Source: Escherichia coli (GTDB lineage: Bacteria; Pseudomonadota; Gammaproteobacteria; Enterobacterales; Enterobacteriaceae). Taken from it: 64,000 nt of DNA. The notes under the pieces are model-generated. The model was not told the origin of the DNA. It worked only from the letters and a program-made list of their open reading frames with translations, and searched no databases. The translations under genes and the position numbers were made by a program. This document shows positions 11,732 to 12,247 of this stretch, piece after piece (the first letter of the stretch is position 1; each line of letters begins with the position of its first letter). Location of the stretch: NCBI RefSeq assembly GCF_024223415.1, contig NZ_CP100500.1. One strand, 5' to 3'.

Positions 11732-11791
11732 CAGGTCAGGATTTAGATATCTGTCCCGGGGGAGTCCCCCGGGATATAATGAGGTACAGAG

Positions 11792-12247
11792 ATGCTGGAT
11801 ATAATCCTGGCGACGAGAGATATTTATTTTGAAAAAGCCCTGCGAGAGATATTTGGAACCGTAAGCAGTCGAATCAGATATATAGAAGATGCCATATCAG
11901 ACAGAAGAAGGGTGCAGTCAGGCAGGTCATTCAGATATTATTTTGTATTCTGTGATGATGAGTATACAGATATTGTTCGTATTCTTTTTACCGGAGAGGC
12001 CTGCTGTATTCTGAATAAGTCGATGCTGAATCTGAGAGCGGCCGGAGGTGTGTTGACGCTGGAAGAGCGCAGAGCGGTACTGAACCGGTATTACAGAGGT
12101 TTAAGTATTGCGGAGATTACAGAAGAGACGGGGCAGAATGACAAGACGGTATACGGTCATCTTCGTCGTGCACTGCAGCGGTCTGGATTCCGGAAGGGGC
12201 GTTTTATAAAGGGGAGAGAAGCTGCGGGGGATTCAGGTGTTGAATAA
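11792..12247 (+). CDS. Putative LuxR-type HTH transcriptional regulator (151 aa)
   Basis: C-terminal LTLEERRAVLNRYYRGLSIAEITEETGQNDKTVYGHLRRAL fits the LuxR/GerE HTH pattern; N-terminal ~90 aa not recognised. Confidence 0.5.
   Translation: MLDIILATRDIYFEKALREIFGTVSSRIRYIEDAISDRRRVQSGRSFRYYFVFCDDEYTDIVRILFTGEACCILNKSMLNLRAAGGVLTLEERRAVLNRYYRGLSIAEITEETGQNDKTVYGHLRRALQRSGFRKGRFIKGREAAGDSGVE

Follow-up and report, generated by a model that had tools for sequence, protein, structure and literature searches.

Layout of the locus

The window analysed here is a stretch of 64,000 nucleotides (nt) from the chromosome of Escherichia coli (assembly GCF_024223415.1, contig NZ_CP100500.1), which includes the right arm of a lambdoid prophage adjoining the host genes yfhH/murR. 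Our subject is a small regulator gene near the end of that arm, which directly follows a gene for a trimeric autotransporter adhesin. An earlier reading of the letters alone (the original prediction) had placed here an orphan LuxR-type regulator with an N-terminal domain that it did not recognise, preceded by a GC-rich palindrome, and had suggested that the protein may be a dedicated regulator of the adhesin (the conversion gene) or of genes of the host. The features on which the argument turns are the following.

10322–11731, plus strand: trimeric autotransporter adhesin gene, 469 residues, with a YadA-type membrane anchor (PF03895 YadA_anchor, E 1.2e-16)
11754–11774: perfect 21-bp GC-rich palindrome TCCCGGGGGAGTCCCCCGGGA, 23 nt after the adhesin stop codon (arms 11754–11763 and 11765–11774)
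11775–11780, plus strand: TATAAT hexamer abutting the palindrome, read in the sequence
11781–11784, plus strand: Shine-Dalgarno sequence GAGG, 7 nt upstream of the regulator ATG, read in the sequence
11792–12247, plus strand: regulator open reading frame (ORF), 151 residues, with an ATG start, from the ORF list
11792–12028, plus strand: predicted truncated receiver-like (pseudo-receiver) domain, residues 1–79, of topology β1 α1 β2 α2 β3 α3 β4
12050–12181, plus strand: C-terminal helix-turn-helix, residues 87–130, sigma-70 region 4-like when taken alone and LuxR/GerE-like at the family level

The regulator ORF lies on the same strand as the adhesin gene and begins 60 nt past its stop codon. Its length, its place immediately behind the YadA_anchor gene and the TATAAT hexamer are all as originally predicted; the palindrome is also present, but one base to the left of the predicted 11755–11775. 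The adhesin, which RefSeq names a "YadA-like family protein," additionally matches the YadA anchor 2lme (E 1.8e-17) and phrog_9547 (E 5.9e-63). It is at most a candidate immunoglobulin-binding Eib protein, having given no match at E ≤ 1e-3 to the solved EibD fragment. Its passenger contains a tandem duplication of a segment of ~33 residues (10960–11163).

Relationship to TosE

RefSeq lists the regulator as a "sigma factor-like helix-turn-helix DNA-binding protein" (WP_000884153-type), an accession for which a literature search by accession found no mention. Direct homologue searches covered 5.8 billion proteins and 1.84 billion cluster representatives. Every match was a copy at least 94% identical to the regulator, all from E. 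coli except for one Salmonella fragment, and tblastn found no match in phage or plasmid collections. The fragment, a partial Salmonella enterica protein (P0005), has an unrelated N-terminus up to residue 47 and is either a chimaera or the product of an insertion-sequence junction at a contig end.

The wider family was reached through a 158-residue "LuxR family" gene that lies behind a YadA-like gene in a Shiga toxin-producing E. coli (STEC) genome (locus L004), and then by profile search. The product of that gene aligns with the regulator from end to end at 22% identity (E 4e-6), and comparison of the regulator with the 158-residue subfamily by hhalign gives a probability of 95.3 (E 2.3e-8). 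The profile search gathered 74 proteins, nearly all of them E. coli "hypothetical proteins" of 156–175 residues, with one from Citrobacter farmeri; the family alignment used below, A3, consists of 31 sequences, the relatives being newly found here. PHROGs holds the same family as phrog_6585, of "unknown function," to which one prophage relative (P0040), the 158-residue STEC protein and the regulator match with E values of 2e-93, 2.5e-43 and 3.3e-4, respectively, the last over residues 3–75. At the DNA level, at least 439 of the 5426 genomes contain a match to the family.

The studied member of this group is TosE of strain CFT073. BLASTP aligns TosE with the regulator at 22% identity over 149 residues (E 8e-9), and hhalign of TosE against A3 gives a probability of 99.87 (E 1.5e-31) over 155 columns. 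Further, the second regulator of the STEC locus is 42% identical to TosF. By these comparisons the regulator is a distant member of the TosE family (phrog_6585), a family found almost exclusively in E. coli. Within A3 its lineage is the most divergent branch, sharing 18–24% identity with the other members. Across the family, conservation falls on the helix-turn-helix and the core residues, and other positions vary freely. TosE is reported to be a LuxR-family member that, with TosF, is linked to suppression of motility (PMC5956150), and TosEF is listed among the regulators of fliC expression (PMC10392849). The description of the regulator as an orphan is correct in that no cognate kinase lies nearby, but a studied relative does exist.

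The assignment of the helix-turn-helix depends on whether the protein or the family is queried. In Pfam, residues 87–130 of the single protein match Sigma70_r4_2 (PF08281) at 30.9 bits (gathering cut-off, 25.7), and no GerE match is found. Across the family, 4 of the 31 members have weak GerE matches, and the best PDB sequence match of the family profile is GerE itself (1fse, E 3.9e-5). Because of this last result, the "clear LuxR/GerE" domain claimed for the protein is right at the family level, although not for the protein alone. Toward the N-terminus, where a hidden Markov model search had been suggested as a check, residues 1–85 match nothing in Pfam, NCBIfam or PDB sequences. In particular, Pfam gives no Response_reg (PF00072) match, and there is none to the autoinducer-binding domain PF03472, the N-terminal domain being only ~80 residues long and receiver-like in prediction. 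The reading of the protein as a DNA-binding regulator without a cognate kinase nearby is supported.

Predicted fold

AlphaFold2 given the single sequence produced an unusable model (predicted local distance difference test score, pLDDT, of 37); given the 31 sequences of A3, it reached a pLDDT of 79.5. In the latter model, the N-terminal part runs β1 (residues 2–7), α1 (11–21), β2 (28–30), α2 (31–41), β3 (49–54), α3 (56–65) and β4 (70–75) into a linker, which is followed by C-terminal helices at 90–101, 106–113 and 117–130 and a disordered tail. The best full-length Foldseek matches are RcsB (5o8y), FixJ (5xt2), StyR (1yio), DesR, VpsT and EvgA, with probabilities of up to 1.0; the BFVD viral fold library returned nothing informative.

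Only four strand–helix units precede the linker, compared with five in a complete receiver, and the model thus depicts the N-terminus as a truncated receiver-like domain of four β–α units. The earlier statement that this region has no recognisable motif therefore stands for the sequence but not for the predicted fold. With the receiver-site residues assigned by topology, not by superposition, Asp55 directly follows β3, the place of the phospho-acceptor in receivers, and is invariant in the family. The place of the acidic pair after β1 reads T-R-D in the regulator and T-R-N in most members. There is neither a fifth strand nor a conserved Lys, leaving a phosphorylation site that is incomplete, with D55 alone present. 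Because only this Asp of the site is kept, control by a kinase is unlikely, and the predicted pseudo-receiver would most likely work independently of phosphorylation.

Genomic context and mobility

Among 5426 complete E. coli genomes, the regulator gene is present in 183, at 287 chromosomal places, and the best copy per genome is at least 99% identical to it in all but one of the 183. In 163 of 182 gene-carrying genomes, the adhesin 3' end runs on into the regulator without interruption; in the exceptions examined, IS421 lies between the two genes. In several genomes this element, of the IS4 family, sits exactly inside the palindrome (e.g. L002 6521–7859 and L003 6521–7859), where it has duplicated a 12-bp target (11758–11769) and split the adhesin and regulator genes from one another; the hairpin may be a preferred IS421 insertion target.

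The conserved DNA extends beyond the two genes and is bounded by two segments.

9804–10050, plus strand: left conserved cassette arm, 97–98% identical to the copies in a genomic island (L001, L005, L007)
12248–12466, plus strand: conserved cassette tail of ~220 nt, AT-rich (~33% G+C), ending where homology to the island copies ends

The left arm comprises the last 80 nt of a tail-fibre-assembly gene, the terminator hairpin of that gene (a terminator-like hairpin at 9897–9924) and a spacer. From 10050 to ~10960 the window has no match in the three island copies. Homology resumes at ~10985 or 11084, depending on the copy, includes the 3' part of the adhesin gene, and ends at 12466 in L001, L002, L003, L005 and L007 alike. 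The segment between the arms, that is the promoter-proximal region and the adhesin passenger, differs among alleles. The regulator and the adhesin 3' end move as one cassette. It also occurs in a non-phage island beside pgt and phosphotransferase system (PTS) genes. The island copies (window 9804–9883 compared with L001 13014–13258) still contain the final 80 nt of the tail-fibre-assembly gene, from which it follows that the cassette there came from a prophage.

The association with adhesin genes recurs elsewhere in the family. Relatives at 20–45% identity stand behind related YadA-anchor genes in other prophages. Four of them (P0037, P0040, P0056 and P0058) each lie 82–87 nt downstream of a YadA_anchor gene, and the first three occupy the same prophage position at separate integration sites, three in all, where DinI comes next and host DNA after it. 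The order seen in the window (adhesin TAA, regulator, DinI on the minus strand, host DNA) is repeated in sister prophages. In CFT073, tosE directly follows the RTX (repeats-in-toxin) adhesin gene tosA. Counting these, the window lineage and the STEC pair, 7 of 10 sampled lineages are adhesin-linked.

The STEC neighbourhood (L004 3984–9257; NZ_CP027340, strain 2015C-3121) consists of a YadA-like adhesin gene, a 70-residue ORF, tosE-like and tosF-like genes, yqaE, mscS and a gene like that of phosphoadenosine phosphosulfate (PAPS) reductase. IbrA, a reported activator of eib genes, is also PAPS-reductase-like, so the neighbourhood may connect both regulatory stories.

A proposed role and its alternatives

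On balance we lean toward the view that the regulator is an adhesin-coupled transcription factor of the TosE type, which acts on motility or surface genes of the host and perhaps on the adhesin promoter. According to this proposal, the YadA-type adhesin and the regulator would together make up an accessory (moron) cassette of two genes, which occupies the right end of lambdoid prophages and has been copied into a genomic island. The palindrome would be the 3' stem-loop of the adhesin transcript and, because it lacks a U-tract, would terminate poorly, such that the regulator would be expressed chiefly by read-through, at a level proportional to that of the adhesin. The protein would bind DNA as a dimer or with a host partner of the FixJ/NarL type, by analogy with TosE/TosF and other regulators at the ends of adhesin operons. 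When the adhesin is switched on, the regulator would then tune the host's genes for surface structures and motility, and possibly the promoter of the adhesin gene as well, all of them targets that we infer.

A more far-reaching version, which we consider unlikely, is that TosE-like proteins as a group are horizontally spread truncated pseudo-receivers wired to prophage adhesins. Because they lack the usual dimerisation face, they would work by pairing with a FixJ/NarL-type protein of the host such as RcsB, in the manner of RcsA, GadE, BglJ, MatA and DctR. If the idea were true, lysogenic conversion would bring not only an adhesin but also a switch for host motility, capsule or acid-resistance genes.

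Several observations weigh against the proposed role. First, TosE and the other members share only about 20–27% identity with the regulator, and the window lineage is the outlier of its family: its linker is shorter, and its helix-turn-helix is scored as sigma-70 region 4. Its function may therefore have diverged. Second, the effect on motility is attributed to TosE and TosF jointly (PMC5956150), and the window has no TosF-like partner gene: no ORF of at least 44 residues lies in 12248–12630. The prophage paralogues are likewise solo, whereas the STEC locus has a TosF-like gene. Third, 3 of the 10 sampled lineages (P0068, P0064 and P0062) have no adjacent adhesin gene or adhesin remnants, and so the family is not strictly adhesin-coupled. 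Fourth, the receiver-like fold is a model built on a shallow, mostly E. coli alignment of proteins without a Response_reg match in Pfam. Finally, co-transcription is a presumption: a hairpin of about −20 kcal/mol could stop or process most transcripts, and a perfect TATAAT directly follows it.

Among the alternatives, the one that fares best is that the protein is a dedicated cis-regulator, which binds the adhesin promoter and exerts positive or negative feedback on the conversion gene. The tight linkage of the two genes across lineages that have diverged to 20–45% identity would be expected of such an arrangement, and AutA and AutR, acting on upaB, are documented adjacent regulators of an adhesin promoter (PMC4844996). 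However, adhesin alleles that carry a regulator at least 99% identical have unrelated promoter-proximal sequences, and a shared operator near the adhesin promoter is not evident because the segment from 10050 to ~10960 is unmatched in the island copies. Upstream of the adhesin gene there is no second copy of the palindrome or of its half-sites, and the three lineages without adhesin linkage also speak against a dedicated role. In addition, TosE is tied to motility, and the tos operon itself is controlled by TosR, H-NS and Lrp (PMC5956150). Since TosE and TosF are linked to motility suppression and not to their own adhesin gene, the evidence favours host genes over the dedicated regulator among the two options of the original prediction, and we regard a dedicated adhesin regulator as possible but doubtful.

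A second alternative concerns the palindrome and the hexamer. The regulator could be an independent, autoregulated gene, with TATAAT as its −10 element and the palindrome as an operator, or as a substitute for a −35 element, bound by its own dimer. The two arms of the palindrome, of 10 nt each and 1 nt apart, are 100% complementary; the element occurs once in the window and was matched in none of 100 shuffles, far beyond chance. It abuts a perfect TATAAT that lies 12 nt before the ATG, and its half-site centres are ~12 bp apart. LuxR-type proteins commonly bind inverted repeats. Against these points, there is no acceptable −35 element at a spacing of 16–18 bp, and a promoter scan of the plus strand predicts no site between 10707 and 12335. 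A start ~7 nt past the hexamer would leave a leader of ~5 nt that begins after the Shine-Dalgarno sequence, and a single TATAAT is expected many times by chance in 64 kb; the hexamer is probably fortuitous and at best a weak promoter. The window contains no other copy of the palindrome, and its half-sites occur at chance frequency.

As RNA, the element would fold into a stem of 9–10 bp with a stability of about −20 kcal/mol, and a G/C stem of 9 bp closed by a 3-nt loop is a typical form for a hairpin in RNA. A terminator scan makes no call at this site, where a T-run is absent after the palindrome. Four sister cassettes, the STEC locus and the tosA–tosE junction each have a GC hairpin and a T-run at the same position behind the adhesin gene (the T-run is weaker in L023), and all of these hairpins are unrelated in sequence to the palindrome of the window. 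Because of this, the intergenic element appears to be conserved as a structure and not as a binding sequence, and because the sister loci have a terminator there, we read the palindrome as a 3' hairpin of the adhesin mRNA rather than as an operator. It is probably a 3' stem-loop or leaky terminator of the adhesin transcript, and an independent autoregulated gene is decidedly unlikely.

We consider it very unlikely that the regulator is a functionless passenger, a decaying gene that rides in the conserved 3' arm by which eib-type loci exchange cassettes. All copies are at least 99% identical, so that purifying selection is not measurable within the lineage; frameshifted, truncated or insertion-sequence-separated copies exist (P0002, P0004 with 116 members, P0008, P0009 and H70); and relatives are reduced to fragments in prophages of O157:H7 and O55:H7. 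Yet 182 of the 183 genomes have a place that covers at least 80% of the gene, the P0001 cluster counts 309 members, and by far the most copies keep the ORF intact at full length, behind a good Shine-Dalgarno sequence. The conservation of the helix-turn-helix and core residues across the family is what a working protein would be expected to show, and the model folds confidently. The RefSeq name would suggest instead that the protein is an alternative sigma factor of minimal size, or that it imitates region 4 in making contact with RNA polymerase or with an anti-sigma factor. This is exceedingly improbable, because Pfam and NCBIfam searches give no match to sigma region 2, the N-terminus is predicted to be α/β and receiver-like and not all-helical as in sigma-2, the NCBIfam sigma models score 19–21 bits against cut-offs of 43–206 and over residues 67–130 only, the family profile best matches GerE, and the full-length structural matches are response regulators.

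Neighbouring features and relatives at other sites

The remainder of the prophage arm and the adjoining host DNA are as follows.

7478–9292: tail-fibre gene with collagen-like repeats
9308–9883: tail-fibre assembly gene
12631–12879, minus strand: DinI-like gene that closes the prophage arm, outside the cassette (ORF; counterparts in sister prophages assigned to PF06183)
From ~13185: host DNA (yfhH/murR), placed by the yfhH annotation

The collagen-like G-x-y repeats of the tail-fibre gene give rise to many spurious overlapping ORFs on both strands. Rfam has no match within 9800–13200. The cassette tail contains two short, very hydrophobic ORFs, one of 31 residues, MKITKAAFIFALSVWSVAVICLLLFVLVVLG (stop at 12454), and one of 17 residues, (V/M)ISVLLLLFFVVFVTNG, neither of which matches Pfam or Rfam; the tail could encode small membrane peptides or be non-coding.

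One of the relatives without an adhesin neighbour, P0064 (171 residues; L021 and L022, 4001–4516), has a type VI secretion gene (VasL) on one side and kpsF/kpsE/kpsD on the other, a place just upstream of group 2 capsule region 1, and is a candidate capsule-linked regulator. The family fragments in the O157:H7 and O55:H7 prophages directly follow tail-fibre genes, with no adhesin gene (L028 4849–5037; L029 5001–5437), and look like decayed cassettes; that of O55:H7 is near the effector genes nleH and nleF.

Significance

Through this analysis, a gene found in ~3% of complete E. coli genomes, including many from poultry and human isolates, acquires a name and a function that can be tested, and a wider family hitherto mostly filed as "hypothetical protein" or "unknown function" is placed with TosE. 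TosE-like regulators are found repeatedly beside adhesin genes, which are of two unrelated types (RTX and trimeric autotransporter) and lie in prophages as well as in islands. The four-unit pseudo-receiver offers a structural hypothesis for TosE-type proteins in general. If these regulators do act on host genes, then lysogenic conversion of the Eib type would alter more than the cell surface. The link between TosE and phrog_6585 or the "sigma factor-like" proteins, the recurrent pairing in Eib-type cassettes and the pseudo-receiver model all appear to be new, since none was found in the literature searched.

Comparison with known systems

The closest known counterpart is TosE (c0364), encoded in the tosRCBDAEF operon of CFT073. 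The homology is full-length (160 residues in TosE, 151 in the regulator) and includes a shared N-terminal motif, (I/V)-I/M-x-x-T-(R/H)-(D/N)-x-Y-(L/F)-E, followed by (V/F)-x-C-D. Both genes lie on the same strand directly behind an adhesin gene, with a stem-loop between. The settings differ, in that tosE follows an RTX adhesin gene in a type I secretion operon, whereas the regulator follows a trimeric autotransporter gene in a prophage cassette. Counterparts of TosF and TosR are also missing beside the regulator. Relative to TosE, the regulator has a linker shorter by ~13 residues, Pfam scores its helix-turn-helix as sigma-70 region 4, and the hairpin in front of its gene lacks the T-run. The other E. 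coli clusters of phrog_6585, annotated "hypothetical protein" or "LuxR family transcriptional regulator" (P0021, P0040, P0053, P0056 and others; 156–175 residues), share the predicted architecture of the regulator and, in most cases, the order gpJ, tail fibre, tail-fibre assembly, YadA-anchor adhesin, regulator, DinI and host DNA. Unlike the window lineage, other branches of phrog_6585 have a true terminator behind the adhesin gene.

A second point of comparison is provided by the kinase-independent regulators of the FixJ/NarL type. GadE, DctR, RcsA, VpsT and CsgD, together with the auxiliary partners of RcsB, resemble the regulator in combining a receiver-like N-terminus with a LuxR-type helix-turn-helix, an incomplete pocket and no cognate kinase, and its N-terminal motif resembles those of GadE (MIFLMTKDSF) and DctR (MFLIITRDTMF). 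In contrast to these proteins, the regulator is predicted to have a receiver of four units, without the α4–β5–α5 face usual for dimerisation, and it is ~25–50 residues shorter than such atypical FixJ/NarL regulators. Homology to GadE and DctR was considered and rejected, as hhalign of the family against them gave probabilities of 2.4 and 1.3, respectively, and BLASTP gave no match.

Third, the logic of a regulator coupled to an adhesin gene is found in AutA and AutR, which we take to be HyxR/HyxA. The likeness does not extend to homology: hhalign of the family against HyxR and HyxA was not significant. AutA and AutR are LuxR/GerE-type proteins; they bind at the promoter of upaB and also influence genes for capsule and acid resistance (PMC4844996). 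The prophage regulators PsrA and PsrB, considered as possible LuxR-like counterparts, are of the AraC type (PMC10877973) and were set aside. PapX and MrpJ belong to helix-turn-helix families other than that of the regulator. The adhesin-coupled regulator is a known kind, of which the protein described here is a divergent, solo and prophage-borne member of the TosE family.

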